A stretch of 64,000 nucleotides of DNA from an uncultured Rickettsiales bacterium (GCA_964542165.1 CAZITQ010000003.1:12451-76450), one strand, 5' to 3'; positions 9,814 through 59,069 are shown, numbered from the stretch's first letter. Made by a program: numbers and translations. The notes: a model not told the origin generated them from the letters alone.

Positions 9814-11022
9814 TCACCCCTGGGTAGACGATTGAACCCCAGGGGATCGGGACCTCTCTTCCAGCAGCTTGCGCAGCGTGCGCAGCCGTTTGCCGTTGCG
9901 GCGGTACCGCTCCACGACGACCTCGTGTGTCTCGTCGACAGACCCGAGCGCAGGCTCCTCCTCATCGATGTAGCGCGCGGCTACATCGCGGAACTCGGTC
10001 TGGACTCGCACGAAACCCTCGTACATGGTCGGATCGAAATGGGATCCCGCTCCCTCCTCGATGATGGCGCACGCCTTCTCGTGGGAGAACGGTTCCTTGT
10101 AGGGTCGCTTGGACGTCAGCGCGTCGTACACGTCGGCCAGGGCGACGATCCGCGCCGACAGCGGGATGTCGTCCTCCTTGAGGCCGAAGGGGTAGCCGTC
10201 GCCGTTCCACTTCTCGTGATGGCAGTAGGCGATGTCCCGCCCCATCTGCAGGAATGAACGGTAGTGCAAGCGGGACTCGATCTGCCGCAGCGTGTCCCCG
10301 CCGATGACGCTGTGGGTCTTCATCACGCGCCACTCTTCCGCATCCAGCTTGCCCGGCTTGAGCAGGATGTGGTCGGGCACGCCGACCTTGCCGATGTCGT
10401 GCAGCGGCGCCGAGCGCCACACATCCCACACGTATTCCTCGGTGATGTACCCGACGTACAGCGGATGGTCCGCGATCGCGGTCGCCAGCAGGCGGGAGTA
10501 CTCGGCCATCCGCTCCAGGTGATTGCCCGTATCCGAGTCGCGGGACTCCACGAGCTTGGCCAGGCCGAAGATCGCCACGTCCTGGGTCTCGCGGATCTGT
10601 TCGTCGGGGGCGTTGGCCGCCTGGAAGATGTGGTCCTCGAGGAAGCGGATTCTCCGCTGCAGGGTGGTGCGCTCACCGCTCCAGCGCAGGGCGTTGAGCA
10701 GGTCGCTGTCTCCTACCTCGAGCGAGGCCATCCCGCCCTTGCTGTCCGGCGCCAGGGGCGTGCCGTTGCGGCGGACCAGCAGGGACAGGTCGGGGTTGAT
10801 CTTGCGCAGGGTGACCCGCAGCTCCTCGGCCGTCCTCGGGTCGAGGCCGCTGGCCAGGACGACGTCGAGGGGGGGTTCGGTGCGCGCGAGCACCGAGCGG
10901 GCATCGTGACTGCTGCGGACCGTGGTGACCGTGTGACCCTCGGCTTCCAAGGACCGGACGAGTCCGTCGTCCTCGTGTCCCTTGGTCTGTACGAGCAGCA
11001 CCTGTTGGCGGCTCTGGGCCAT
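9814..11022 (-). CDS. Response-regulator receiver + HD-GYP domain protein (c-di-GMP phosphodiesterase type)
   Basis: N-terminal receiver-like domain (VLLVQT...DVVLAS). HD-GYP motifs HDIGKVGVPD and HHEKWNGDGYPFGL. RBS GGGAGGA. Confidence 0.85.
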   Translation of the reverse strand: MAQSRQQVLLVQTKGHEDDGLVRSLEAEGHTVTTVRSSHDARSVLARTEPPLDVVLASGLDPRTAEELRVTLRKINPDLSLLVRRNGTPLAPDSKGGMASLEVGDSDLLNALRWSGERTTLQRRIRFLEDHIFQAANAPDEQIRETQDVAIFGLAKLVESRDSDTGNHLERMAEYSRLLATAIADHPLYVGYITEEYVWDVWRSAPLHDIGKVGVPDHILLKPGKLDAEEWRVMKTHSVIGGDTLRQIESRLHYRSFLQMGRDIAYCHHEKWNGDGYPFGLKEDDIPLSARIVALADVYDALTSKRPYKEPFSHEKACAIIEEGAGSHFDPTMYEGFVRVQTEFRDVAARYIDEEEPALGSVDETHEVVVERYRRNGKRLRTLRKLLEERSRSPGVQSSTQG

Positions 11023-11075
11023 TGCTGTCCTCCCGCGCCCGCTTCTTGCGGCGCGTCAAGCGACTCACATAGGGG

Positions 11076-11102
11076 TTATCGTCGAGAAGCGATCGAACTT
11101 GA
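11076..11102 (-). promoter_or_regulatory. Candidate sigma-28 (FliA) promoter TCAA-N15-GACGATAA
   Basis: The minus strand reads TCAAGTTCGATCGCTTCTCGACGATAA. The -10 is identical to that of the flagellin-2 promoter. It lies about 50 nt upstream of the HD-GYP start. Confidence 0.4.
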
Positions 11103-13477: not shown

Positions 13478-14053
13478 TCACCTGAACGCTACCTCCACTC
13501 CCCCGTGCACGTGCCAGCCCCCCAGGTCCATCCCCTCCTTCGTCCTCCACTTGGCCCAGCGGTGTCCCCCCTCCAGCGTGAGGTACAGCCCCTCGAAGCG
13601 TGGGTGGGGCGCCATGGAATACGTGGTCTCGGGCGTGAGCAGGATCGAGAGCCCCCCGCCGATCTGGGCCCCCGGTTTCACCCCGTGGACGAGCTCTCCG
13701 GCGGATTCGCGGTAGAAGGTCCACAGCGGTCCCGCCACCACATAGGGGATCACCGGTTGATGGAGCTCGACCTCCAGCCGCCCTTCGATCCGCAATCCGA
13801 AGGTACCCAGCTGCATGCGCGCGACATCCGTGGACGGCAGGGCATCCTCCTTGAGCAGGGCGGTACCCTTTCGCCAGCTGTACGAACCCTGGAGGCCGAT
13901 CCCCACGGCGGGGAGGGGCCGCACGACCACCTGGGCCCAGATCTGAGGGGCCCCGGGTTTCGTGTAGACCGTCTCGACCTCGGGGGACCGGGTGCCCGAC
14001 CAACCCCCGCTCAGGGTCAGGGCGACGCAGAGCAGCTCGGGCCAGCCACTCAT
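13478..14053 (-). CDS. Hypothetical small outer-membrane beta-barrel-like protein
   Basis: N-terminal hydrophobic signal. Alternating hydrophobic pattern. Terminal ..GGVEVAFR. ATGA and GTGA overlaps with both neighbours. Confidence 0.5.
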   Translation of the reverse strand: MSGWPELLCVALTLSGGWSGTRSPEVETVYTKPGAPQIWAQVVVRPLPAVGIGLQGSYSWRKGTALLKEDALPSTDVARMQLGTFGLRIEGRLEVELHQPVIPYVVAGPLWTFYRESAGELVHGVKPGAQIGGGLSILLTPETTYSMAPHPRFEGLYLTLEGGHRWAKWRTKEGMDLGGWHVHGGVEVAFR

Positions 14054-14595
14054 GCCTGACTCCTGGCCCTCAGCTGCTGGCGCTGGATCCGGAACACCAG
14101 GTCCACCAGCTGTCGCTTGACCGACTTGGGCGGGTCCACGAAGGTGAAGCCCAGGAACTGCCCGTCCTCGAGGTTCTGGCGACGCACCAGGCGCCCCTCC
14201 ACCTGGACCGGCCTCTGGCTCGGGTCATCGGTGCAGCGGATGATCAGGGGAACTTGCTCCCCGACCTCGCAGGGGGCCTGACCGTAGAATCCCACACCGC
14301 CCTCGGACAGGCTCACGTCACGCTCGGCAACCTGCTGCCGCTCGGCCAGCTGGCCCACCACCTCGAGCAGCGAACCCATGTACTCCACACAGCTGTCCAG
14401 AGCCTCGGTCAGGACCGGCTGGGCTTCGGGTCGGATCCTCAAGATGCTCTCCACCATGTCCGCGTGCCGCGTCCGGAGCGCGAACAGGGGATCCTCGTCC
14501 AGGGGGGTGTCGAACGGACCGACGGACACCCGGGCCTTGAGGCTCACCCGGAAATGCCTTCGCTTCTCGCTCGCGCTCTCTGTGTTCGAACTCAC
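14050..14595 (-). CDS. PilZ domain protein (c-di-GMP receptor type)
   Basis: GTG start after GGAGGAATTCC. RRHFR (RxxxR) motif near the N-terminus and a later DVSLSEGGVGF (xSxxG) motif. Confidence 0.7.
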   Translation of the reverse strand: MSSNTESASEKRRHFRVSLKARVSVGPFDTPLDEDPLFALRTRHADMVESILRIRPEAQPVLTEALDSCVEYMGSLLEVVGQLAERQQVAERDVSLSEGGVGFYGQAPCEVGEQVPLIIRCTDDPSQRPVQVEGRLVRRQNLEDGQFLGFTFVDPPKSVKRQLVDLVFRIQRQQLRARSQA

Positions 14596-14619: not shown

Positions 14620-14635
14620 TGCAGGATTCGGGCCA
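14620..14635 (-). promoter_or_regulatory. Candidate sigma-54 promoter TGGCCC-N5-CTGCA upstream of the PilZ operon
   Basis: The minus strand reads TGGCCCGAATCCTGCA with correct GG-N10-GC spacing, about 25 nt upstream of the GTG start. Confidence 0.45.
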
Positions 14636-14687: not shown

Positions 14688-14701
14688 GTCAGGGGTTTGA
14701 C
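14688..14701. promoter_or_regulatory. GTCA-N6-TGAC palindrome (candidate enhancer/UAS)
   Basis: gtcaggggtttgac lies about 55 nt upstream of the -24 element. The same palindrome type occurs upstream of the other two sigma-54 promoters. Confidence 0.45.
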
Positions 14702-14817
14702 GGGAACGTCAGGAGACCGTCCCGTGTCGGGACTCGCGGGAGCGGTTCTGCTGCGAGTGCGCAGCGCTCGTCTGCAGCAACCGCGACCTCTGACGCGGCG
14801 AGCGCAGCTCGTCCGCG

Positions 14818-15192
14818 TCAGAGCTTCTTCTGGAGGGTCTGGGCCTTGTGGTGCGCCTGTTGCCCGCCGTAGGCCCGCAGGGCCCGGTTGCACATGCGCA
14901 GGGAGTGGATGCGATCGTCGAGCTCCTCGAGGCGGCGGTGCGCCGTCTGACGGAAGAGCGCCGCTGCCTCTTTCCAGGCACGGAACGCCGCCTCCTCCGC
15001 GGGGGTCGGAGGGCCGTGCCTTCGCTCGGCTGCGGCTCGAATCGCGCGGTCGCTCAGGTGGAGCTCCGGGGCCATGCCCGCCAGGCTGTCGTCGTCCGCG
15101 ACGGCCACCGCCTGGGACAGGCGCTGGAGCTTGTGGGTCGCCGCCTTCAGCAGCTCTTGCAGGTCGCTGTCAGCTCGCGCGGGCAGCTCCAT
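14818..15192 (-). CDS. Hypothetical helical protein downstream of fliS (possible FliT-like chaperone, by position only)
   Basis: ATG 15192 is preceded by GGAGGACTCCT. All-helical, charged sequence. No motif recognised. The ORF track extends it to 15237. Confidence 0.4.
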   Translation of the reverse strand: MELPARADSDLQELLKAATHKLQRLSQAVAVADDDSLAGMAPELHLSDRAIRAAAERRHGPPTPAEEAAFRAWKEAAALFRQTAHRRLEELDDRIHSLRMCNRALRAYGGQQAHHKAQTLQKKL

Positions 15193-15577
15193 AGGAGTCC
15201 TCCTGGTAGATACGCACGGCCTCGTCCCAGGTGTCACGCAGCTCCACGAGCTTTTTGTGCAACACCTCGAGGTCGGCTTCCATGGGCCGTTGGTGGGCGT
15301 CGAGCATCACCCGCGACAGGTAGGTGTAGTGCCGGAACAGCTCCACGGCCACCGAACCGCCCGTCTCGATGCTCAGGCTCTCCTGGAGAGCGACCACGAT
15401 CCGGCGCGCCCGGAACAGCTCTTCCTTGCGCACCCGCGGATCGTCGCTCTCCATCGCCCGCTCCATCATGGAGACCGCTCCTTCGCACAGCTCCACCAGC
15501 AACTGCTGCGGACTGTGGGTCTCCAGTGTCGTGCGCTGATAACTCTGCAACTTCGATGCCATGGGGTTGGCGTACAT
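15170..15577 (-). CDS. fliS: Flagellar export chaperone FliS
   Basis: SPQQLLVELCEGAV, ..IVVALQESL..E.GG.VA.EL...Y.YL...L and LRDTW match the FliS pattern. Position after fliD. Confidence 0.85.
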   Translation of the reverse strand: MYANPMASKLQSYQRTTLETHSPQQLLVELCEGAVSMMERAMESDDPRVRKEELFRARRIVVALQESLSIETGGSVAVELFRHYTYLSRVMLDAHQRPMEADLEVLHKKLVELRDTWDEAVRIYQEDSYGAARAS

Positions 15578-21049: not shown

Positions 21050-21074
21050 ACTTTTTTCAATCTTTTTTTTGGTT

Positions 21075-29313: not shown

Positions 29314-30170
29314 GCGGTCCTCCTCGGTTGACTCCCGCTCGCAGATCGTCGGCCCCGCTGGGCGCTCGGACGCCCCCGCCGCGGCTTGGCCCGCCCGCGC
29401 TTGGGCGCTTCACCGGTCATGTGGGAGCGCAGTCGCAGGCAGGCTTCGGTGTGGATCTGGGACACCCGGGACTCGGTCACGCCGAGCACCGCGCCGATCT
29501 CCTTCAGGGTCAGGTCCTTCATGTAGTACAGGATGAGGACCGTCCGCTGCCGCTCGGTCAGGTGCTCCTGGATCGCCTTGCCCATGCTGGACAGGGTCTC
29601 CTTGAGAGCCACCTGCTCCTCCACGGTCGAGGAGTCGGGGTCGCCCAGCATCTCCGCCAGGGGCCGGGACTCCTCGGATCGCTTGTTCTCGTAGGAGACC
29701 AGCAGCACGTTTCGGCTGTCGTCGACCATCTTCCAGTACTGGTCCATGCCGACGCCCATGTCCTCGGCCACCTCCTCGGGCTTGGGGGTGCGGCCGAGCT
29801 GGCGCTCCAGGGACGAGATCACCACCTCGATCTGGTTGGCGGTCGCCCGCGCCTGGCGGGAGATGGGGTCCAGGCGGCGCAGCACGTCCAGCATCGCGCC
29901 GCGGATCCGGAAGTCGGCGAACGTGGAGAATTGGACGTGCCGGTTGGGGTCGTAGCGATTCATGGCGTCCAGCAGTCCGAGGGCACCCGAGTTGATCAGG
30001 TCCTCGAGCTCCAACGCCGCGTCGTCCGGGATTCGCGCCTTGAGCCGCCGGGCCATCGCGGCCACCCGCGGGGAGAATTTCTGCACGACCTCGTCCCGGG
30101 TCATCCCGTCGATCTGGGTCGCATCGCGGTAGGCCGCCGGGCCGTAGTTCATCGCGGGCGTACGCGTCAT
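29310..30170 (-). CDS. fliA: Flagellar sigma factor FliA (sigma-28) with an Arg-rich C-terminal tail
   Basis: Region 2 FSTFADFRIRGAMLD. Region 4 LTLKEIGAVLGVTESRVSQIH. ATGA overlaps on both sides. Confidence 0.9.
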   Translation of the reverse strand: MTRTPAMNYGPAAYRDATQIDGMTRDEVVQKFSPRVAAMARRLKARIPDDAALELEDLINSGALGLLDAMNRYDPNRHVQFSTFADFRIRGAMLDVLRRLDPISRQARATANQIEVVISSLERQLGRTPKPEEVAEDMGVGMDQYWKMVDDSRNVLLVSYENKRSEESRPLAEMLGDPDSSTVEEQVALKETLSSMGKAIQEHLTERQRTVLILYYMKDLTLKEIGAVLGVTESRVSQIHTEACLRLRSHMTGEAPKRGRAKPRRGRPSAQRGRRSASGSQPRRTA

Positions 30171-31219
30171 CGGACCGCACCCTCTCCGGTATTGGCCAGC
30201 AGCGACTCACCCGTCTCCGTAGGGGGCTCGTCCTCGCATCCCGACAGTCGCTCCACGAGTTCGGACCACCTCGCCAGTTCGATGCGGGGGATGTCGTTGG
30301 GCTCCTTGCCCTGAATCCCCAGCGGTCCGTTCGTGCCCAGGGCCAGGCCGACCACCGACCCCAGCTGCGTGTCGTCGTCCACTCCGGTCATCAACCAGCC
30401 GGTGTGGGTCTGCTTCGCGCACGCGCTCAGCAGGCCCACCGACTCCGATATGGGTCCCATCGCATCCACCACCGGTACCAGCGTCATCTCCGGGAACAGC
30501 CGCCACCACGACGACAGCCCCAGCCGTGGCTCGCCCAGGCACGGCGGCGGCAGATCGATCACCACCAGTCGCACGTCCGGGAGCCGGGAAACCGCGAGCG
30601 CGGCTTCGTCCGCGCTCTCGTAGCCGAAGACCTCGACCCCGTCGCCCGGCATCACCGGCGCCTGCGCCGTGAGCAGGGCGACCCGCTCGGGGATGATCTC
30701 GCTGGCCATCCGGCACAGCCCGCCGGCCACCGTGGACCGACCTGTGAAGGGGTGCCCCACGACTCCCAGGATCTGGAGCTGGGACAGGTCCAGCGCCGGA
30801 CTACACGGCGCCTTGTTGTCGAGAATGCGCTGCACGCTCTCCCAGGGCATGGCGTCCAGGGCGTCGTCCTGGTCCCAGGCCTGCCGGACCAGCAGGGTGG
30901 CCTGGTCTTCCCGCACGCCGGTCTGGCACAGGGTGCGCCACACTCGCTCGTAGCGCGTCGGCCAGCGCTCGGCGCCGCGGTTCGCCGGCTCCCGGGCCTC
31001 GGTCTTCTTCTCCAGAGGCCGCAGGAAGTCCACCAGGCTGGGGATGCCCACCTTGTCCATGGCCGAGACCACCAGCTCCGTTCGGGTCACGCCCTGCTCG
31101 TCGCGCACCGACCGCACGTCGACGATGACGATGTCCTCGCCCAGCTCGCGGAACGCGCGGCGGGCGGCGTCGCTGAGGGAGCGGCCGTGGAAGCGGAAAG
31201 TCTTCTTGCCCGGTGTCAT
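30167..31219 (-). CDS. flhF: FlhF-like protein with degenerate GTPase motifs
   Basis: FlhF-type N-terminus (KTFRFHGRSLSDAARRAFRELGEDIVIVDVRSV) in the flhA-flhF-fliA position. The P-loop reads GHPFTGRST where canonical FlhF has GPTGVGKTT. The expected DTAG site reads IDLPP. Confidence 0.6.
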   Translation of the reverse strand: MTPGKKTFRFHGRSLSDAARRAFRELGEDIVIVDVRSVRDEQGVTRTELVVSAMDKVGIPSLVDFLRPLEKKTEAREPANRGAERWPTRYERVWRTLCQTGVREDQATLLVRQAWDQDDALDAMPWESVQRILDNKAPCSPALDLSQLQILGVVGHPFTGRSTVAGGLCRMASEIIPERVALLTAQAPVMPGDGVEVFGYESADEAALAVSRLPDVRLVVIDLPPPCLGEPRLGLSSWWRLFPEMTLVPVVDAMGPISESVGLLSACAKQTHTGWLMTGVDDDTQLGSVVGLALGTNGPLGIQGKEPNDIPRIELARWSELVERLSGCEDEPPTETGESLLANTGEGAVR

Positions 31220-33304: not shown

Positions 33305-33333
33305 CCTGGAACCGTCCTATCCCTGACGCTGTG

Positions 33334-34440
33334 TCACCGCGTTGACGGCGACGGTTCATCCGCCTCCATGCCTCTCAAACCCCGGATTCGATGGACGAAG
33401 CTGAGGATCTCGGCCACCGGTCCGAACAACTCCTGCGGTATCGGGTCACCCACGTCACATTGTTTGTACAAGGTTCGTGCCAACGGTCGATTCTGCAGCT
33501 GGGGGATGCCGTGCTTGCGCGCTTCGGCGCGGATCCGCATCGCCAGGTGATCGGCCCCCATGGCCACGATCTCCGGGACCTCGGTGACCCCGTGGACGTA
33601 GCGCAGCGCCACGGCGATGTGCTCGGGGTTGTTGACCACCACGTCCGCGTCCCCGACCGCGGAGATCATCCGGTTGCTCGACAGCTCCTGGGCGACCTTG
33701 CGGCGCTTGGCCTTGACGTGGGGATCCCCCTCCTGCTCCTTCACGTCCCGCTTGAGCTCCTCCCGGGTCATCCGCATCTTCTTGGTGATCCGGTAGATCT
33801 GGATCCCGTAGTCGAGCACCGCGGGCGCCAGCAGGGCCACCGCCGTGGCCCCGGCCAGCCGCAGCGCCACCTCGCCCATCACCCCCACGGACCGGTGCAG
33901 ATCCGCCCGATGCAGGGACAGCAGCGAGCCGATGTCGGCCCTCAACACCAGGTAGGCCCCCGCCATCACTGCCGCCAGCTTGAGCAGGGACTTGAGCAGC
34001 TCGATCCAGGCCTGGGAGCCGACCAGCCGCTTGACCCCCTCCAGGGGATTGAGCTTGCTCAGGTCGGGCTTCATCGCCTTGAAGGTCACGTTCCCCTGGG
34101 TCTGGGCCAGCCCCACCACCAGAGCCACCAGGCAGATCGCCACCAGCACCGGCGCCAGAAACGAGATACAGCCCCCCAGCAGCGCCGGGATCCACAGCCG
34201 CCAGGTCTCGATGGAGTCGGCGGGAGCGGCGGCCAGCATCAGCGGCGCACGCATTGCCTCGCAGACCGCCTCGACGGCCTCCGGAGCCCCCACCACGACC
34301 AGGGGGATGATCACGAGCATCGAGAGGACGGAGATGAGGTCGCGGGAGACCGGGATGCGTCCCTGCTCCCGGAACTCCTTCCGACGTTGGTCGGTGGGTT
34401 CCTCTGTACGTTCTTGTGAGTCGGCCTGTTCTTCCGCCAT
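33334..34440 (-). CDS. flhB: Flagellar export switch protein FlhB
   Basis: ERTEEPT..R..EFREQG....SRDL. NPEH autocleavage-site region (VVVNNPEHIAVALRY). Confidence 0.95.
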   Translation of the reverse strand: MAEEQADSQERTEEPTDQRRKEFREQGRIPVSRDLISVLSMLVIIPLVVVGAPEAVEAVCEAMRAPLMLAAAPADSIETWRLWIPALLGGCISFLAPVLVAICLVALVVGLAQTQGNVTFKAMKPDLSKLNPLEGVKRLVGSQAWIELLKSLLKLAAVMAGAYLVLRADIGSLLSLHRADLHRSVGVMGEVALRLAGATAVALLAPAVLDYGIQIYRITKKMRMTREELKRDVKEQEGDPHVKAKRRKVAQELSSNRMISAVGDADVVVNNPEHIAVALRYVHGVTEVPEIVAMGADHLAMRIRAEARKHGIPQLQNRPLARTLYKQCDVGDPIPQELFGPVAEILSFVHRIRGLRGMEADEPSPSTR

Positions 34441-40135: not shown

Positions 40136-40906
40136 CTAGGCCCCCTGCTCCTGCTCGGGACGGTCGTTGGGCCGCAGGACCGACGCCAGCTTCTCCCGCA
40201 TCACGTGGGGATCGTCGCCGGCCAGCAGCGCCAGGAAACCCTGGATCAACATCTCCTTGCGGAAGACCTCTTCCTTGGAGCGGACCTTGAGCTTTCCCGA
40301 GATGGGGATGAACACCACGTTGGCCACCAGGGCGCCGTAGAACGTGGTCACGAGGGCGACCGCCATGGAGGGGCCGATGGTGGCCGGATCGTCCATGGTC
40401 TGCAGCATCTGGATCAGACCGATGATGGTCCCCAGCATGCCGAATGCAGGCGCGTACATACCGAGCTTCTCGAAGACCTCGGCGCCGAGCTGGTGCCGCT
40501 CGGTCGTGGCGTCGATCTCGGTGGTCAAGATGGACTGGATCACGTCCGCCTCACGGCCGTCGACCACCAGGGCCAGGCCCTTGCGGAAGAAGTCGTCTTC
40601 CAGCTCCTCCTCGGCCGACTGCAGGCTCAGCAGTCCCTCGCGGCGAGCCTTGCGGGCCAGCTGCTCGAACAGGACGATGATCTGGGAGTTGTCCGGGCTC
40701 TTGCCCAAGAAGGCCTTGCGCACCACGGCGAAGACCTTGAACACCACCCCGGCGGGGTAGGTGACCAGGACGGCCCCGACGGTGCCCCCCAGGACGATCA
40801 TCGCCGACGGCACGTTGACGAAGATCGCCCCGCCTTCCCGTGTGAAGATCGCGAGGACGACCAGTCCGAAGCACGCCGCGATTCCAACTAGCGTGGTGAA
40901 GTCCAC
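40136..40906 (-). CDS. motA: Flagellar stator protein MotA
   Basis: GTG 40906 after GGAGCGGAGTGGAAC. Four-TM MotA/TolQ/ExbB pattern including YAPAFGMLGTIIGLIQML. The ORF track extends it to 41101. Confidence 0.9.
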   Translation of the reverse strand: MDFTTLVGIAACFGLVVLAIFTREGGAIFVNVPSAMIVLGGTVGAVLVTYPAGVVFKVFAVVRKAFLGKSPDNSQIIVLFEQLARKARREGLLSLQSAEEELEDDFFRKGLALVVDGREADVIQSILTTEIDATTERHQLGAEVFEKLGMYAPAFGMLGTIIGLIQMLQTMDDPATIGPSMAVALVTTFYGALVANVVFIPISGKLKVRSKEEVFRKEMLIQGFLALLAGDDPHVMREKLASVLRPNDRPEQEQGA

Positions 40907-40944: not shown

Positions 40945-40961
40945 AGCAACGAACGTGCCAG
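40945..40961 (-). promoter_or_regulatory. Sigma-54 promoter CTGGCAC-N5-TTGCT upstream of motA
   Basis: The minus strand reads CTGGCACGTTCGTTGCT, a near-perfect TGGCAC-N5-TTGCW, about 40 nt upstream of the motA start. Confidence 0.65.
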
Positions 40962-41182
40962 TTCCGAACGGGGGATCTCGGGACCGGAAGTGGGGGGGCG
41001 AACGCCCCGTAGGCGCGGGCCTCGCTCACCGGTTCGAGCGGGCCGGAATCGACGACAGTCGTGGGATCTCGGGGGGGGACCAGCGAGGTGGGCGTCCCCA
41101 CGGCGGCCCTTCGGGGGGCGAGCCCAACGCGACGACCGCAGGTGTCGAGAATTCCTCACTTCCCGTCAGCTGCTTGTCGACC

Positions 41183-41196
41183 GTCAATGCCTTGAC
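41183..41196. promoter_or_regulatory. GTCA-N6-TGAC palindrome (candidate enhancer/UAS for the motA sigma-54 promoter)
   Basis: gtcaatgccttgac, about 225 nt upstream of the -24 element in a 343-nt intergenic region. Confidence 0.45.
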
Positions 41197-41249: not shown

Positions 41250-42077
41250 CTAGGCCACCGCCGCCCGGGGGGACAGGGCCATCATCACGCCGGCGAAGGT
41301 CGCCGCCGGCGCGTCCACCGCCGAGGCGAGGCGGTGGTCGTTGACCCCGCCGGAGACCATCGACTCGGCCCGGGCGACCAGCGCCGGGATCCCCCGGCGC
41401 GGTGGACGGCCCGCGCTCGAACCCACCGACTCCCGCAACGCCTTGGGCAGGGCCCAGCAGCGGGCGAGCTCGCGCCCCAGGCGGGATGCCACGGGGTGGT
41501 CCAGGTAGGGTTCGACTCCGCTGACCTCCAGGGCCGCCGCCACCTCGGGCAGACGGACCAGCCGCGACAGGGAGTGCAATACCAGGGCCCGACCCACGTC
41601 GTGGATCAGCCCGGCCGCGTAGGCCTCCTCCGGCGGCAGACCGGCGGCCCGCGCCAGGCGCCGCGCCAGACCTGCGACACACACGCTGTGGGCCGCCAGC
41701 CGTTCCGCGGGCTCCTCGAAGGGAGCGGGCAGGGGCATCGACGACGCGACGGACGCCTGCAGGAGGGCGCTGCACGCACCCTGCCCCAGCCGCTCCACCG
41801 CGTCGGGCAGCTCGGTCACCGGTTGGCCGGTGGGCTGCATGATGTTGGCTGCGGCCAGCGCCTGGCCCGCGAGCACCGGATCGGCGGCGAGCATCGAGAG
41901 CTCGGTCGCGTCGCCGGCCAATCCGTCCCCGGGCACCAGCATCGCGCCGATGCTGGGTCCAAGGGGCGGGAGCAGTCGGGTGAACGACTGTCGGGCCACG
42001 CCTGCGAGCATCCGCAGGACGGGTTCGGAGAGGCTTCGCGTATCGCCGGCGGCCAGATCGACCAGGGTGACGTCCAT
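41250..42077 (-). CDS. HDOD domain protein
   Basis: HD-related output domain pattern with GLIHDVGRALVLHSL. No catalytic HD..D or metal-ligand set recognised. Confidence 0.6.
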   Translation of the reverse strand: MDVTLVDLAAGDTRSLSEPVLRMLAGVARQSFTRLLPPLGPSIGAMLVPGDGLAGDATELSMLAADPVLAGQALAAANIMQPTGQPVTELPDAVERLGQGACSALLQASVASSMPLPAPFEEPAERLAAHSVCVAGLARRLARAAGLPPEEAYAAGLIHDVGRALVLHSLSRLVRLPEVAAALEVSGVEPYLDHPVASRLGRELARCWALPKALRESVGSSAGRPPRRGIPALVARAESMVSGGVNDHRLASAVDAPAATFAGVMMALSPRAAVA

Positions 42078-43538: not shown

Positions 43539-43727
43539 GGGTTCCTCCGAACGGACCCCACGCAGGGCGCGCGGTCCTTCGTCTCAGGTGGCAGCGCTTC
43601 AGTCGGTCCGCGCCGCCTGGCCCTTCTGACGCCCCATGGCGTTCAGTCCGGACCGTGTTGTCTCGCCTTCGTCGGCTCCCCGCGAATCGCGCGGGGGACC
43701 CTTCCTAAGGAGGTCGAAATCCGACCT

Positions 43728-50404: not shown

Positions 50405-52000
50405 TCAGCCCTCCTCGATCCAGTCGCGCAGGGCGCGAACCGAGACGGGGAGGTTGGTCTGCAGCACCGAGACCAGGGGATCGCCATCACCCTGGTGCCC
50501 CGTCAGCTGCACCAGCTGCCGCTGGAACTCGGGGCTCCGACCCTCGAGCAGGGCCAGGGGACTGTCCGGGTCGCCGAATTCATCCTCACGCACCGGCGTG
50601 ACCACCGACTGCATCACCGGTCGGGCCACGTAGCGGTAGGCGAGGATCAGCAGGGTGATGACCACCAGCCAGCGCCCCGCCTTGCCCCAGGGCACCAGGG
50701 CGAAGATCGGCATCCCGGCCTCGGTGACCTCGCCCTGCGCCGCATCCACGAACGGCATGTCCACCACGGTGAGCACGTCCCCGCGGTTCAGCTCCACGCC
50801 CACGGCGGCGACGATGGCGTCGGTGATCTTCTGGATCTCGTCCTCGGTGCGCGGGGTGTAGCTGACCTCTCCGGTCTCCTCGTCCAGCAGCCTCTCCTGG
50901 TCCACGAGCACCGCCACGCTCAGCCGTTCCACCCGGCCCGCAGGCTGGTGGCTGTCGGTCGTGCGTGTCGGGGTCAGGAAGGTGTTCTCCTCGGACATCG
51001 AGCTGGACTCGGCCACACCTTCGGCCCCTCCCGCACCCGCACGGGCCTCGATCTCGGGCAGGTTGGAGCCGCTCCCGGGAACCCCGGACGCGGACGCGTT
51101 GCCGCCGCTCTCGTTGCGCTCGGTGAACGAGGAGTTGGACGGGGTGGCCTTGGTGCCGTCGTAGTCCACCGCCGAGACCTGGCTGGTCGCGGTGTCGACC
51201 CTCAGGGTGACCTGGACGTCGGTCCGGTCCTCGGCGTAGAGCCGGTTCAAGGCGGCCTTGGCCTTGGCCTGCAGCTCCTTTTCCCGCTGCCGGACGATCT
51301 CCAGCATCCGGTCGACCGCCGCCACGCCGTCCTCTTCCTCGATGGGACGGGTGTAGAGGACCCCGGTGGTGTCGGTGACCACCACGTCTCCAGGCCTGAG
51401 GTTGGGAACCGACGCGGCCACCAGGTTGGTCACCGCCCTGACCTGGGAGCTGGTCAGGCGCTGGCCCGACGCCAGCTCCAGGTCCACGCTGGCCCGGGCG
51501 TCGATCCGGTCCTCCCGGAACAGGGCGCTCTCGGGCATCACCAGGCGCACGCTGGCCCGCTTGACCCCCTCCATCCGGGACAGGGTTCGCGCGAGCTCCC
51601 CCTGCAGCGCGACCTGGAAGGTCACCTTCTCCTCGAAGCGGGTGATGCTCTTGCTGCCGTTCTCCAGCAGGTAGTCCATGCCCGGCAGCGTCGAGCCGAG
51701 CTCGCTGCCGTAGGCCACCAGCCGGGCCTCTTCCACCTGGGAGGCGGGCACGAGCAGGCGGTCGCCCTGGACCTTCACCTGGAAGTCCTGGTCCCTCAGG
51801 GTGCCCACCAGCGTCTGGGCCGTGGCCGGCTCCAGGCCGGCGATCACGGGGGTCCACCGGGGTCGTCCGGCCCAGACCGCCACGACGACGATCAGCGCCA
51901 CGGAGACGCCGACGATCGCCAGCAGGGCCTGCCGCCGGCGGGGGCTCAGATCGGCATAGAACTCGCGCGTCCGGGCGTACAGCTGATTCAGGCCGTCCAT
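50405..52000 (-). CDS. fliF: Flagellar MS-ring protein FliF
   Basis: 531 aa. N-terminal TM helix. YscJ/FliF family core (..LVAYGSELG....GMDYL..). Second TM helix near the C-terminus. Confidence 0.95.
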   Translation of the reverse strand: MDGLNQLYARTREFYADLSPRRRQALLAIVGVSVALIVVVAVWAGRPRWTPVIAGLEPATAQTLVGTLRDQDFQVKVQGDRLLVPASQVEEARLVAYGSELGSTLPGMDYLLENGSKSITRFEEKVTFQVALQGELARTLSRMEGVKRASVRLVMPESALFREDRIDARASVDLELASGQRLTSSQVRAVTNLVAASVPNLRPGDVVVTDTTGVLYTRPIEEEDGVAAVDRMLEIVRQREKELQAKAKAALNRLYAEDRTDVQVTLRVDTATSQVSAVDYDGTKATPSNSSFTERNESGGNASASGVPGSGSNLPEIEARAGAGGAEGVAESSSMSEENTFLTPTRTTDSHQPAGRVERLSVAVLVDQERLLDEETGEVSYTPRTEDEIQKITDAIVAAVGVELNRGDVLTVVDMPFVDAAQGEVTEAGMPIFALVPWGKAGRWLVVITLLILAYRYVARPVMQSVVTPVREDEFGDPDSPLALLEGRSPEFQRQLVQLTGHQGDGDPLVSVLQTNLPVSVRALRDWIEEG

Positions 52001-52828: not shown

Positions 52829-53209
52829 CTATCCCTTCCCCTCGGTGACCGCATAGCGCAGGAGACCGACGCGACGATTGAGGACCTCGACGGAGGCGCT
52901 GTACAGCATCTGGTTCTCCGTGAGGACCGCCATCTCCCGCTGTGGATCCACCGAGTTGCCGTCCGCGGCCCAGGCCGGGGGGTCCGCCAGCTTCACCTCC
53001 ACCGCCTCACCCAGGGATCCGGATGTCGGACCGCCCTCGGCGGACCGCAGCAGATTCGCCAGGGAGCGGCCGAAGTCGATGTGCCGCGCACGGAATCCCG
53101 GCGTGTCGCTGTTCGCCAGGTTCGTGACGGTCATCGCGTGCTGACGGGTTCGCAGGTCGAGCACCTTCTCGATGGCCGCGCTGATCGGGTCGAGTAGGGT
53201 CGAGCTCAT
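52829..53209 (-). CDS. flgB: Flagellar proximal rod protein FlgB
   Basis: ATG 53209 after CCGGAGGAACC. LDLRTRQHAMTVTNLANSDTPGFRARHIDF. Confidence 0.9.
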   Translation of the reverse strand: MSSTLLDPISAAIEKVLDLRTRQHAMTVTNLANSDTPGFRARHIDFGRSLANLLRSAEGGPTSGSLGEAVEVKLADPPAWAADGNSVDPQREMAVLTENQMLYSASVEVLNRRVGLLRYAVTEGKG

Positions 53210-53249: not shown

Positions 53250-53266
53250 TTGCAAGCTACGTGCCT
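53250..53266 (-). promoter_or_regulatory. Sigma-54 promoter AGGCAC-N5-TTGCA upstream of flgB
   Basis: The minus strand reads AGGCACGTAGCTTGCAA with GG-N10-GC spacing, about 42 nt upstream of the flgB ATG. Confidence 0.65.
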
Positions 53267-53329
53267 GACCGGAATCGGGGGACGTGAACGATGTGGGGGG
53301 TGGAGATTCGACGGGTGGCTGACGACGCC

Positions 53330-53343
53330 GTCAACGGTCTGAC
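53330..53343. promoter_or_regulatory. GTCA-N6-TGAC palindrome (candidate enhancer/UAS for the flgB sigma-54 promoter)
   Basis: gtcaacggtctgac overlaps the stop codon of the TPR gene, about 65 nt upstream of the -24 element. Confidence 0.45.
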
Positions 53344-55708
53344 GGATGGCTGGCGCCGGTGGCGTCGGAGTCGAAGGCGCTGGGCACACCGATGAGCTTG
53401 TCCATGCGGCGGTACCACAGCATCTCGGCCGCCTCCTCGGTGGCGAGGCCGTTCCAGAAGGCGGGCTCCCCGCCCCGGGACGGATCGTCGAGCAGGGCGT
53501 GGGCCTCGTCCAGTCGACCCTGATCGCGCAGGACCTTGGCCCGCAGGTACAGGGCGGCCTCCCGCGAGGTGGCGGGAAGGTCCCCCGCGACGAGGGCCGT
53601 CAACCGCTCGTCGGCGGCCTGCAGTCGTCCGGCCCGGTAGAGTGCCCACGACTCGAGGAGCTGGTCCTCGGCGACCGGCTCCGCACCGGTGGCCCTCGCC
53701 CGGCCCAGCGCGTCGGCGGCGTCGGCCCAGCGCTCCTGGCGCAGCGCCACGTGCCCGGCGAGCCGCTCGGCGCGTGCCCGGATGTCCGCGGGGGCAGACC
53801 GCGCCTCCAGTACACCGGCGACCCGCTCCCCCGCCTCGCCGACGCGTCCGGCGCTCAGCAGCAGATTCGCCTCGAGCACATCGGCCTGCAGCATCCGGGA
53901 GGAGGTCGTGGCGGACTTGCGGAAATAGGCCACGGTCTCCAGGCCCGCGTCGAGGCGGTCCAGGGCGTGGTACAGCTCCGCCAGACGCAGGAGCACCTCC
54001 TCGCGCTGGTCGACGGTGATTCGCTCGTCGGCGAGCATCGAGGTCAGAGCCCGGCGGGCCTCCTCGTGCAGCTGCAGCGCCCGCAGGTCTCCAGCCACCT
54101 CCCACAGCAACGCTGGATCCGTGCAGGTGGCGGCATCCCGGCGGTCGACGAATTCCAGGTAGAGCCCGGCTGCGAGGACCTGGTTGTCCTCCTCGCGCGC
54201 CATCTGCATCAGCTCCGCGGCGGCGGAGCACATCCGGCCCTCGACCTGCAGTCGACCCATGAACTCGCCGTGGAAGCGCAGGGTCTCCTTGTCCAGCCGG
54301 CATCCGTCGAGCAGCATCCCGTTGTGGTGCAGGAAGGCGGCCTCGGCCAGAGCGATCTCCAGGGCCGTCGTCGGCTCCACCTGGCTCAACACGCGCAGAT
54401 GGGCGATGGCGTCGGGGAATTCCAGCTCACCGCCGCCGGTGAGCAGATCCCACTCGAGCCGTCGCAGCCGCTCCATCAGGCTCGCGCGCCCCGTGGCGTC
54501 CGCCTTGAGCTCCCCGAGCCAGTAGCGCACGTCGGCCTCGTCGTCGCGCATCATCGCGCAGTCCACCAGTCGCACCAGGACCAGGTGCTGGCGCTCGGGG
54601 TCCTGGTCCAGGAGGCGAACGAGCAGGCTGGCGGCGTGCTTGGGTTCCGCCGCCCGGTACGCCAGCTCCGCTTCCAGCCAGGGATCGAACTCGATGTCCG
54701 GCCAGCCCCTCCGCAGGATCTCGACCGATGCGTTGGCCTCCTGCATCCGCTCCATGGCGGCAAACGTCGTCGCGAGCCCCGCCAGGGCGTTGCCCCGGGC
54801 CTCGTTCGGCAGCGCCTCCCCGGCCCGCTCCAGGTCGTCGATGGCCGAATCCAGCCGGCCCATCGCCTGGCGGGCCATCCCCTGGCCCAGCAGGTGCCAG
54901 CCCGCCCGCGGTGTGTAGGAGAACTGGCGCGCCGCTCTCTCGAAGTAGTAGGCCGCCTCGTCGTAGGCCCCGGCGAGGTAGAGACACTCGCCGGCCAGGG
55001 CCAGGGTCGACTCGTGGGTGAGATCGTCCTCCATCCGCGAGGCCACCAGCTGGAATCGTGCCCCGCACTCGTCCCACCAGGCCGGGTCCTCGCCGGCGTC
55101 CGCCTTGGCCCGCGCCTCCATCCCCGCCGCGAGGCTCGGGGTCACGATCAGCGAGGTGGTGGTCTCGATCTCCGCCGCGGCGGCGTCGTCGAGGGGGACC
55201 GTCGGCAGGATGACGCTGTCCCCCGCGGCCACGAAGGGACGCGAAACGAAGGACCAGGGGCTCGCCTCTCCCAGGGGCAGATAGCCCATGCCCTCGCCCG
55301 GGTGGGCGCGCCCTGGGTTGACCCCCTCGGCGAGCGATTCGCCCAACGCGGTGGGGTGCTCCCCCTCCTCCCGAGCACGCAGCTCCACCCGGAGCTCGCC
55401 GTCGGGCCCGAGACGGACGGTCGAACCGTCGACCACCTCGTCCAGGACCAGGACCACAACGGTGCTGCCGTCGTCCCGGATCTCGACCCTCGCGGCGTCC
55501 ACGCGGTCGTGGCGCAGCACCTCCACCTGACGGAGCAGGTCGGGATCGCCGCGCCAGATCTGGATCCGCAGTTCGCCCCAGACCGGGCAGGGGTCCCAGG
55601 TCGCGCGAGCGTCCTCTCCCAGATCGAGGGTCACCGGGCCGCTGCGGCTCCGGGCGGCCGCCGGCAGGGCGGTGGTGATCGTCAGCAGGACGATCGGGAG
55701 GAGGCTCC

Positions 55709-55712
<4 letters not shown>
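53331..55712 (-). CDS. Large periplasmic TPR-repeat protein (793 aa) in the flagellar operon
   Basis: ATG 55712 makes an ATGA overlap with the activator stop. Signal peptide MRSLLPIVLLTITTALPAAA. Multiple TPR-like A..YY..A......, L..G.A....G....A pairs throughout. Confidence 0.7.
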
Positions 55713-57124
<1,412 letters not shown>

Positions 57125-57412: not shown

Positions 57413-58495
57413 TCAGGCGGGGCAGCAGACCTGGTTTCGACCGCTCTTCTTGGCCTGGTAGAGGGCCTGGTCCGCGCGCTTGAGGAGGTCCTCGGCCGCC
57501 TCCCCCGCCTTGGCCGAGGCGACGCCGAAGCTCGCGGTGCAGCGCAACGCGCCAGAGCCGGTGTCGACGGACAGGGCGGCGATGGCCTGACGGATCCGCT
57601 CGGCCACCGCGGCGCCGCCCGGCCCATCGGTGTCGGAAAGCAGGATCGCGAACTCCTCCCCGCCGAAGCGGGCGGCGTAGTCGGTCTTGCGCAGGACGTT
57701 CTCGGCCAGACACCGGCCGACGGTCGACAGCACCTTGTCCCCCACGTCGTGCCCGTAGGTGTCGTTGACGGACTTGAAGTGGTCCAGGTCGATCATGACC
57801 ATGCACAGGTGGTCGTCCTCGACCCCGGGCAGGCGCTCGGACATGAACTCGTCCAGCCATCGGCGGCTGCAGACCCCGGTCAGCGCGTCGATCTGCAGCT
57901 TCTGCTCCGCGCGGGAGAGCTTGCTGCGCATCTTGCCCAGCTCCTTGTGCAGGGCCTTCTCCCGCCCCTTCTCCTGCTCGCGCTGCTTCTCGACCGACTC
58001 CGAGAGGCTCTTGACCTTCTTGCGCACGGTGTCGACCACGGACTCCAGGTCACCGAGTTCGGTGGCCTGGCGGATCTCGCCGATGACCTTCTCCATCTCC
58101 TGACGGGAGTCCTCGGCCTCCTGGACGCCCTGGATGAAGGCCGAAGAGATGTCCTCGACCAGGGATCCCAGGAGCTGCTCCCGGGCCTTGTTGAGGTGCA
58201 GTAGCTCCTGGACGAGTCCGCCGACCGTGACCCGAGCCTCCTTCTCGGCCGGGGCCTTTCCGTCCTTGAGCGTGGTGTCCAGGTCATCCAGCGAGCGGCG
58301 GAACTTGGTGAGCTCCTTGTAGGGCGAGTGCACGGCAAGGTGGCGGAAGGCGACCACCAGCGTCCTCGCTGTCCGCGAGAGAGCCTTGACCGCGATCTGC
58401 TGCTCCTCCATCAAGGAGCGGGCGGCCTGGCGGCGGTCCGCGGCCCCCGCGGGGCGCCCGCCGCCTTTCTTGCCACCCTGCTGCCACCAGGACAT
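57413..58495 (-). CDS. GGDEF diguanylate cyclase with N-terminal coiled-coil region
   Basis: ATG 58495 (MSWWQQGGKKGG). GGEEF active site with an RKTD (RxxD) I-site 5 residues upstream. DLDHFKSVNDTYGH. Confidence 0.85.
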   Translation of the reverse strand: MSWWQQGGKKGGGRPAGAADRRQAARSLMEEQQIAVKALSRTARTLVVAFRHLAVHSPYKELTKFRRSLDDLDTTLKDGKAPAEKEARVTVGGLVQELLHLNKAREQLLGSLVEDISSAFIQGVQEAEDSRQEMEKVIGEIRQATELGDLESVVDTVRKKVKSLSESVEKQREQEKGREKALHKELGKMRSKLSRAEQKLQIDALTGVCSRRWLDEFMSERLPGVEDDHLCMVMIDLDHFKSVNDTYGHDVGDKVLSTVGRCLAENVLRKTDYAARFGGEEFAILLSDTDGPGGAAVAERIRQAIAALSVDTGSGALRCTASFGVASAKAGEAAEDLLKRADQALYQAKKSGRNQVCCPA

Positions 58496-58658
58496 GCGTG
58501 CCCCTCTCGCGCGACCCACATTCGACCGATGATTATAAAGCCGGTTTGATGGGACCACCAGCCATGGCCACTGCGGCGCTCCCCCTCGATCGCCCCGTCG
58601 CGAGCAAAAAACGAGCCCCGGGCTAAAGGACTCGTACCTTGCGTCCGATACCTCCCCC

Positions 58659-59069
58659 ATGGACCACCCCGACATCGATCACGCGCTCTGCCCCGACCTG
58701 CTGGTCTATGCCGGCCACGTCGACGACGTCGACGAGGACTCCGTCGTCGCCGCCCTCACCGAGACGGGGGTCCAGGTGAGGCGAGCGCGCACGGCACAGG
58801 AAGCGGCGGCGCTGGTGCGTTTTCTACCGGTGAGGCTGCTGGTGGTCGGCCTGGACGGCCCCGAGGATGTCTGGCGCCTGATCCGCGAGACGGCCAACGG
58901 CGAGCGACCGATCCCCGTGGCCTGCCTTTCCGCCACCGCGACCCGCAGCCGGGTCCTCGGCGCCGTGCGGCGGGGGGCCAGCAGCTATCTGGTGGGGCCG
59001 ATCGACGGTTCGGCGGTAGCCACCTCGCTGACCCCGCTACTCAACGGCCACGCCCCTCCCCAGGAGTAG
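58659..59069 (+). CDS. Receiver-like (CheY-fold) domain protein, truncated by a 50-bp duplication
   Basis: Weak REC-like pattern (LLVYAG..., RLLVVGLDGPED, ..PVACLSA). The stop TAG is created exactly at the duplication junction. Confidence 0.4.
   Translation: MDHPDIDHALCPDLLVYAGHVDDVDEDSVVAALTETGVQVRRARTAQEAAALVRFLPVRLLVVGLDGPEDVWRLIRETANGERPIPVACLSATATRSRVLGAVRRGASSYLVGPIDGSAVATSLTPLLNGHAPPQE

Follow-up and report, generated by a model that had tools for sequence, protein, structure and literature searches.

Which protein reads a palindrome that recurs upstream of flagellar operons in an uncultured bacterium, and is that palindrome an enhancer for sigma-54 promoters? We addressed this question in a 64,000-nucleotide stretch of DNA from an uncultured Rickettsiales bacterium (GCA_964542165.1 CAZITQ010000003.1:12451–76450; hereafter the window), starting from the interval 40945–41196, which holds a sigma-54 (−24/−12) promoter element of the flagellar gene motA and, upstream of it, a 14-bp palindrome of the form GTCA-N6-TGAC (hereafter the box). 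A previous, sequence-only reading of the window had paired three such elements with three such palindromes and proposed them as an enhancer code for a resident FleQ-like activator. Our analysis indicates that the boxes are most probably upstream activating sequences for the FleQ/FlrA-type bacterial enhancer-binding protein (bEBP) encoded in the same window (55709–57091). This enhancer system would drive at least three sigma-54 promoters, and probably four.

Boxes and promoters in the window

The three palindromes are present where they had been reported (41183–41196, 53330–53343 and 14688–14701). An exhaustive scan of the window for GTCA-N6-TGAC returned five matches against 1.10 expected, and at least five were reached in 2 of 100 dinucleotide-preserving shuffles. 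The earlier estimate of about 0.5 occurrences by chance was somewhat low. The extended form CGTCA-N6-TGACG has three matches against 0.14 expected, a number reached in none of 100 shuffles, and these three are exactly the sites that were first noted.

Candidate sigma-54 elements with GG-N10-GC spacing were scored against TGGCACG-N4-TTGCW, out of 12. The three elements of the sequence-only reading lie at the places it had given, correctly oriented and 24–41 nt before a start codon with a ribosome-binding site. The promoter of the motA-motB-fliL-fliM-fliN-fliO-fliP-fliQ-fliR-flhB-flhA-...-fliA operon (TGGCACGTTCGTTGCT, 40945–40960, minus strand) scores 12/12 and is located 38 nt before the motA GTG at 40906. 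The promoter of the flgB-flgC-fliE-fliF-fliG-fliH-fliI-fliJ-...-flgD-flgE operon (AGGCACGTAGCTTGCA, 53251–53266, minus strand) scores 11/12, 41 nt before the flgB ATG at 53209. These are the only matches of their grade in the window, where chance predicts about 0 and 0.26, respectively, so that both promoters stand on their own. The third, a weak sigma-54-type promoter of the PilZ operon (TGGCCCGAATCCTGCA, 14620–14635, minus strand; 24 nt before the PilZ GTG at 14595), does not, since it is one of five 10/12 matches with 3.3 expected. When the full consensus was searched with at most one mismatch, three matches were found in 64 kb (40945, 53251 and 33467), and every one adjoins a box. The remaining 10/12 matches (8807, 15546, 21075 and 58603) are within genes or on the wrong strand, in a number that chance predicts, and were set aside. 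The match at 15546–15561 (minus strand, TGGCATCGAAGTTGCA), in the 5′ end of fliS, is identical at position 5117 of the related locus L011, which most likely reflects coding conservation.

The primary box of the motA operon (cGTCAAGGCATTGACg on the minus strand, 41183–41196) is centred 231 nt upstream of the −24 GG. A second, imperfect box (GACAAGCAGCTGAC, 41165–41178; matrix score 11.0) lies 18 bp from it, centre to centre, and its right half, CTGACGG, is conserved. The primary flgB box (cGTCAGACCGTTGACg on the minus strand, 53330–53343) is centred 72 nt from the −24 GG, and extra half-sites CGTCAG...CGTCG (53309–53324, minus strand) occur about 20 and 31 bp after its first half-site, in a conserved block. 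The primary box of the PilZ operon (cGTCAAACCCCTGACg on the minus strand, 14688–14701) is centred 61 nt from the −24 GG, with an extra TGACG half-site (14707–14711, minus strand) 5 nt upstream, which is also present in the relatives L011 and L012. Thus, the primary boxes are accompanied by extra half-sites in roughly helical register. A fourth box (cGTCAACGCGGTGACa on the minus strand, 33333–33346) is located at the flhB stop/flhA start and is also conserved; the three sites noted earlier are all real, but they were an incomplete set.

A matrix built from 15 sites reads c-GTCA-(A/G)-N4-(T/C)-TGAC-g. GTCA is preceded by C in 12/15 sites and by T in 3/15, and TGAC is followed by G in 11/15 and by A in 4/15; A or G occupies position 5 and T or C position 10, whereas positions 6–9 are mostly G/C. 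The fifth GTCA-N6-TGAC match in the window (51429–51442) was rejected. It consists of the fliF codons GTC ACC GCC/GCG GTG ACC (VTAVT), has no flanking c/g, and scores 4.9 bits on the matrix, compared to 18–24 bits for the real sites; it recurs in the relative L003 because the encoded peptide is conserved. The next-best matrix match (11055–11068) is not conserved in L011, and its region holds a conserved sigma-28-type promoter. The box-to-promoter distances (61–236 nt) leave no consistent remainder modulo 10.5, and the idea of helical phasing between box and promoter was dropped.

Conservation in relatives

Relatives were gathered at graded distance through FliG, the activator, MotA and the PilZ protein, and through FlgC in metagenomes. 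Relatives with 44–90% protein identity retain both the box and the −24/−12 element at the orthologous flgB, motA and PilZ positions, while the spacer DNA between box and element diverges and changes length. Upstream of flgB, a perfect box and an 11/12 element are found in L001, L002 and L013, with 76 nt from start to start in each, and in L003, L004 and L005, where this distance is 97, 110 and 112 nt, respectively; the element of L005 has TTGGA at −12. The activators of the last three are 59% (L003), 58% (L004) and 49% (L005) identical to that of the window. Upstream of motA, a box accompanies a 12/12 promoter in L001, L002, L008 and L009, at 237, 237, 241 and 133 nt, respectively, and the intervening spacer is poorly conserved in a three-way alignment. 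At the PilZ operon, the box is paired with TGGCCCGGATCCTGCA in L011 (77% identity) and with TGGTCCGGTTCGTGCA in L012 (44%), both at 66–67 nt start-to-start, as in the window. The PilZ promoter, which was correctly located at the outset but is weak by itself, becomes credible because of this conservation. Across ∼290 kb of clade loci, 18 of the 23 perfect palindromes fall at the four orthologous regulatory positions.

An independent survey covered 79 distant metagenome loci whose FlgC is 45–57% identical. Eight of their 18 perfect palindromes are in the 280-nt zone upstream of flgB, which makes up 4.2% of the sequence (binomial P = 3e-7). The boxes are usually 110–116 nt before the sigma-54 promoter and often occur in tandem, 17 bp apart. 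The activators encoded beside flgB in these loci carry a helix-turn-helix (HTH) of either FleQ-like (NRTTLVEK) or FlrC-like (IRTLRNKL) type, and both types are present in L030 and L034. When HTH type was compared with presence of the box, the informative loci were too few for a firm correlation.

Seven distant loci of 43–52% G+C (L015, L019, L023, L025, L029, L033 and L044) have a GTCA-N6-TGAC with an A/T-rich centre upstream of flgB. The box is 110–295 nt before the sigma-54 promoter in L015, L019, L025, L029 and L033, tandem boxes 17 bp apart are found in L019, L023, L029 and L033, and the upstream gene of L019 and L033 has a TPR-like tail at its end.

The flhB/flhA site

The fourth box runs across the stop codon of flhB, 29 nt ahead of the flhA start, and is followed by a CGTCAG half-site at 33328–33314; both are kept in L008 and L009. 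The codons under this box vary (STR*, SSS* and SSA*), but the TCA serine codon, which accounts for 1.1% of serine codons in the window, stays. A sigma-54-like element inside flhB (TGGCACGAACCTTGTA, 33467–33482, minus strand), the third of the matches with at most one mismatch to the consensus, encodes LARTLY and is a candidate internal promoter for flhA. The fourth box begins 136 nt after the start of this element, on its downstream side. The conserved FlhB peptide LAR(T/S)LY uses GCA (3.5% of alanine codons) and TTG (5% of leucine codons) in the window, L008 and L009, while synonymous positions neighbouring these two codons differ among the three. A GC at −12 would be impossible in this element without losing the tyrosine. 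There is thus moderate evidence for a predicted internal flhA promoter with an enhancer box ∼110 nt downstream of its start site.

Alternative origins of the palindromes

Chance association, combined with coding constraint on boxes that run into the end of a gene, deserves attention since the TGA of two boxes is also the stop codon of the upstream gene, and since the fliF match at 51429 is clearly mere codons, recurring in L003 for that reason. At flgB, the TGA of the right half-site is the TPR stop codon in the window and in L003, and the box adjoins the TPR coding sequence likewise in L001 and L002. However, L004 and L005 have the flgB box entirely between genes, so that coding constraint is no explanation, and the flhB-terminal box keeps its rare TCA serine codon while neighbouring codons change. 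Neither the excess of the extended palindrome over its shuffles nor the enrichment of the box in distant loci fits such an origin, and, on the statistics and the conservation together, chance is very unlikely indeed to account for the boxes. The earlier judgement that palindromes beside −24/−12 elements are no coincidence is thus upheld by the extended-form scan, by the co-location with consensus elements and by the conservation in relatives.

The location of the palindromes also bears on whether they act as RNA rather than DNA. All four are at or just past a stop codon, at the 3′ ends of the HDOD, TPR and flhB genes and of the open reading frame (ORF) 14818–15237, where hairpins could serve as terminators, processing sites or stabilisers, and their folding energies range from −5.7 to −14.5 kcal/mol, with z-scores of −2.2 and −2.7 for two. 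Yet none of the four is followed by a U-run, and the stems have just 4–6 bp. Among 18 orthologous sites the stem never covaries, being always GTCA/TGAC, whereas the loop bases vary freely; an invariant stem with a variable loop points to base-specific recognition by a protein and not to structure. Distant taxa have the motif as well, before sigma-54 promoters and in tandems spaced by 17 bp. A function as RNA hairpins is, therefore, distinctly improbable, and the boxes are better regarded as protein-binding sites in DNA.

The resident activator

The bEBP consists of 460 residues (55709–57091, minus strand) with a degenerate REC-like N-terminus, an AAA+ domain with GAFTGA and a Fis-type HTH. It is the sole bEBP of the window, as had been claimed, by both tblastn and a scan for GAFTGA, which occurs once, at 56455; its true start is the ATG at 57091 and not 57124. 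Pfam assigns it Sigma54_activat (PF00158, E = 2.4e-69), the associated lid, and HTH_8 (E = 1.5e-9). Its best sequence match in the PDB is Pseudomonas aeruginosa FleQ (8p53; E = 4.8e-76 from the single sequence). A profile of 24 orthologs matches FleQ with E = 1.7e-116 over residues 43–456, ahead of the first non-FleQ entries (NifA and ZraR, about 1e-104). The C-terminal 69 residues alone also have FleQ (8p53_C) as best PDB match, with E = 4.5e-6, ahead of Fis and NtrC. In the alignment of the HTH regions of bEBP and FleQ (RAASLLRMNRTTLVERLKRLGMS and RAAERLRIRRTTLVEKMRKYGMS, respectively), RTTLVE is identical in the recognition helix. MNRTTLVE is invariant across the 24 orthologs, which are 42–100% identical, in keeping with the persistence of the box down to L005.

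The N-terminal region is less typical. An AlphaFold model (mean pLDDT 82) shows residues 1–113 as a (βα)5 REC-like fold with a pLDDT of about 80–90, and the acidic pair after β1 is missing (VVISGRT). The Pfam FleQ and Response_reg models have no match to the N-terminus even at E = 10, and the alignment of the profile with FleQ is weak from residue 43. Foldseek finds REC-AAA+-HTH activators generally and does not discriminate between NtrX, NtrC1, LuxO and FleQ. The bEBP passes the cut-off of no model in NCBIfam, a collection that has no FleQ model.

Downstream of the bEBP gene is the gene of a 793-residue TPR protein (53331–55712, minus strand), whose start overlaps the bEBP stop (ATGA), so that the two are translationally coupled. 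Every relative retains this gene pair, even L006 and L007, which have no flagellar genes close by, and the TPR protein may serve as a partner or antagonist of the bEBP. L003, L004 and L005 share the order GGDEF–bEBP–TPR–flgB operon with the window. By the site matrix, no box is present upstream of the bEBP or GGDEF genes; the bEBP gene is preceded instead by a sigma-70-like TTGACC-N17-TACATT (57316–57288, minus strand). Autoregulation of the bEBP was accordingly rejected, as its promoter has no sign of it.

Proposed assignment of the boxes to the activator

The FleQ box of Pseudomonas is ∼22 bp long with a conserved 14-bp core, the pseudopalindrome GTCAAT-N2-ATTGAC (PMC10723142, summarising Baraquet & Harwood 2016). 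In the published model, an HTH dimer occupies this site and R467-R468 are suggested to read the GxC ends; many FleQ-controlled promoters have more than one box (PMC10723142). The statement in the sequence-only reading that the Pseudomonas box is a GTCA...TGAC palindrome is borne out by this core. A yGTCA-N6-TGACr motif was predicted for DVU2894, a FleQ/FlrA-like enhancer-binding protein (EBP) of Desulfovibrio vulgaris (Kazakov et al. 2015, PMC4641369), GTCA-N6-TGGC is found in the FlrA region of Vibrio cholerae, and some flagellar enhancer sites are downstream of their promoters (PMC4641369). The proposal that the boxes are enhancer sites of the FleQ-like activator is thus supported by phylogenetic footprinting, by the similarity of its HTH to that of FleQ and by the match to published motifs. 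By the same comparison the “enhancer code” is not something new, as it equals the known FleQ/FlrA box.

Genes related to cyclic di-GMP (c-di-GMP), which encode GGDEF, HDOD, PilZ and HD-GYP proteins, are numerous in the locus, and the flhA box, 29 nt from the start codon, is in a place that would also suit a repressor. The palindromes might therefore be operators of another dimeric factor, a repressor or a c-di-GMP-responsive regulator encoded elsewhere, that also controls motility. This is rather unlikely, however, as the box equals the site that experiments have defined for the bEBP's closest characterised homolog, the recognition helix of the bEBP is near-identical to that of FleQ, and the same motif has been independently assigned to FleQ/FlrA-like EBPs in Desulfovibrio and Vibrio (PMC4641369). 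Moreover, no DNA-binding regulators other than the bEBP and FliA were found in the window.

Several observations weigh against assigning the boxes to the bEBP. Their centres are GC-rich, compared to A/T-rich in Pseudomonas, and the pair R467-R468 of FleQ corresponds to N438-R439, with R467 replaced by an asparagine. The distance of 231 nt between the motA box and its promoter is unusually long, and the intervening DNA has no IHF-like site, even with two mismatches allowed. The PilZ −24/−12 element reaches only 10/12, and the 64-kb window contains no rpoN gene. Among the relatives, the box is missing upstream of motA in L010 (MotA 54% identical), and L084, a distant locus, lacks it even though a FleQ-like HTH adjoins flgB. 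Finally, orthologous sites were found by exact-pattern search, so that the constancy of the eight core bases follows in part from the search itself.

Proposed regulatory cascade

We infer sigma-54 dependence, binding and the order of the cascade from the site statistics, the conservation, and the similarity of the protein and its HTH to FleQ. In the mechanism that we propose, a dimer of the Fis-type HTH of the bEBP would bind each 14-bp inverted repeat, and neighbouring half-sites 10–20 bp away would aid assembly of the AAA+ ring; several dimer sites per promoter are what a ring-forming activator would need. The ring would contact the sigma-54 holoenzyme, closed at −24/−12 elements 60–230 bp downstream, and use ATP to open the promoter. 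The targets switched on in this way would be the flgB...flgE operon, the motA...flhA...fliA operon and the flagellum-linked PilZ/OmpA-like operon. The cascade would thus begin with expression of the bEBP from its sigma-70-like promoter and continue with bEBP- and sigma-54-dependent expression of the structural and export genes and of fliA. FliA may then switch on the two flagellin genes and an HD-GYP gene through sigma-28-type promoters. Promoters of this type (TAAAG/TCAAG-N15-16-xxCGATAA) are found on the minus strand at 21050–21022 and 18313–18284, before the two flagellin genes, and at 11102–11075, before the HD-GYP gene (9814–11022); the last is conserved in L011 and L012.

The analysis yields a testable regulon model for a flagellated uncultured lineage, made up of a motif, a cascade and four targets. 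Conservation of the FleQ/FlrA box and of its reading head extends far outside the Gammaproteobacteria, and the same matrix should therefore be usable for flagellar regulons in metagenome-assembled genomes.

Gene order and neighbouring features

The window has 69% G+C, and one flagellar supercluster, encoded on the minus strand, fills it nearly completely. Read towards decreasing coordinates, it begins with M20 and M24 peptidases, GGDEF, the sigma-54 activator and the 793-residue TPR protein, followed by flgB-flgC-fliE-fliF-fliG-fliH-fliI-fliJ ... flgD-flgE and an HDOD protein (41250–42077). The motA-motB-fliL-fliM-fliN-fliO-fliP-fliQ-fliR-flhB-flhA genes come after the HDOD gene and lead, through an ORF with weak similarity to FlhF, to fliA. 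Past fliA are rod, ring and hook-associated genes, two flagellin genes and flaG-fliD-fliS. The low-coordinate end holds a four-gene operon (PilZ, beta-barrel, unknown and OmpA-like proteins, in this order) and then the HD-GYP gene.

The 350-residue ORF between flhA and fliA (30167–31219) occupies the usual flhF/flhG position; it has no Pfam match and resembles the FlhF model only weakly, over the first ∼56 positions of that model. Neither a MinD-like FleN/FlhG gene nor a second-tier FleS/FleR pair was seen within the window. The c-di-GMP-related genes are interleaved with the flagellar operons (GGDEF, 57413–58675; HDOD, 41250–42077; PilZ, 14050–14595; HD-GYP, 9814–11022), and each of the four adjoins one predicted promoter. 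The flgE leader (43539–43727, minus strand) contains two GC-rich hairpins, GAGGTCGGATTTCGACCTC and CCCCGCGCGATTCGCGGGG, and no recognisable promoter was found in it.

The label “uncultured Rickettsiales” of the closest genomes, L001 and L002, fits poorly with a G+C content of ∼70%. Proteins of the MXAN_2562 family, TraB-like and MopE-repeat proteins, and the nearest named homologs of the activator indicate Myxococcota or a neighbouring phylum. A flagellated member of a Myxococcota-like group would be unusual.

Comparison with known systems

The system most similar to that of the window is FleQ of P. aeruginosa and P. putida. The two systems share a 14-bp inverted repeat, in which the outer half-sites (GTCA...TGAC) are the same and A/T is preferred at positions 5 and 10. 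They also have in common several boxes at a promoter and sigma-54 class II flagellar promoters, namely that of flhA and, through the flhA operon, of fliA. Both activators are REC-like/AAA+/Fis-HTH proteins, 45% identical over 315 aligned residues (AAA+ and HTH), with RTTLVE shared. The flhA box of the window may likewise sit downstream of its sigma-54 site, which echoes the title of Jyot et al. 2002, by which some FleQ sites reportedly are downstream of the RpoN site. Besides the differences in box centre and in the R467-R468 pair, the c-di-GMP/ATP pocket of FleQ is altered, with R185 kept but R144 replaced by glycine and N186 by alanine in an ungapped alignment. The residues equivalent to E330/R334 are Y/D in the alignment based on a hidden Markov model (HMM) and D/R in the pairwise alignment, a placement that is ambiguous. 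Furthermore, the bEBP is without a Pfam FleQ domain match at its N-terminus and is coupled to the TPR protein, with no FleN/FlhG-like gene or FleS/FleR in the window.

The motif predicted for DVU2894 has the same consensus as ours, including the flanking y/r (c...g here). Both motifs were predicted by comparative genomics, both regulons are flagellar, and in both cases a single-component EBP is found in a flagellar cluster of the “delta-proteobacterial” type. The position of the flhA box also echoes the downstream enhancer sites reported in Desulfovibrio (PMC4641369). In contrast, DVU2894 has the repeat upstream of its own gene, which predicts autoregulation, whereas the bEBP gene is without a box and has a sigma-70-like promoter; the loop sequence is GAFTHA in DVU2894 and GAFTGA here. 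FlrA of V. cholerae, a master regulator of the FleQ family, has a GTCA-N6-TGGC repeat in its binding region at the flrBC promoter (PMC4641369). There, a second tier, FlrBC, serves the rod and hook genes, whereas in the window the first-tier activator seems to control flgB and the hook genes directly.

These comparisons allow a further reading, which we put forward only tentatively and consider doubtful: the window may represent a stripped-down, two-tier cascade of the FleQ type, in which FleN/FlhG and the FleS/FleR tier are missing, the c-di-GMP pocket is altered, the activator is accompanied instead by a conserved TPR protein to which it is translationally coupled, and a promoter hidden in flhB, where rare codons spell TGGCAC...TTGTA, is served by a downstream box at the ribosome-binding region of flhA. 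If this were true, then, together with the distant flgB boxes, the GTCA-N6-TGAC/RTTLVE pair would be an ancient module across several phyla, and the “downstream enhancer” of Pseudomonas flhA would be ancestral and not a curiosity. No new mechanism is revealed by the window: the pair of motif and reader is already described and widespread, from Pseudomonas to Desulfovibrio and Vibrio, and what the window adds to it is a lineage, not a principle.

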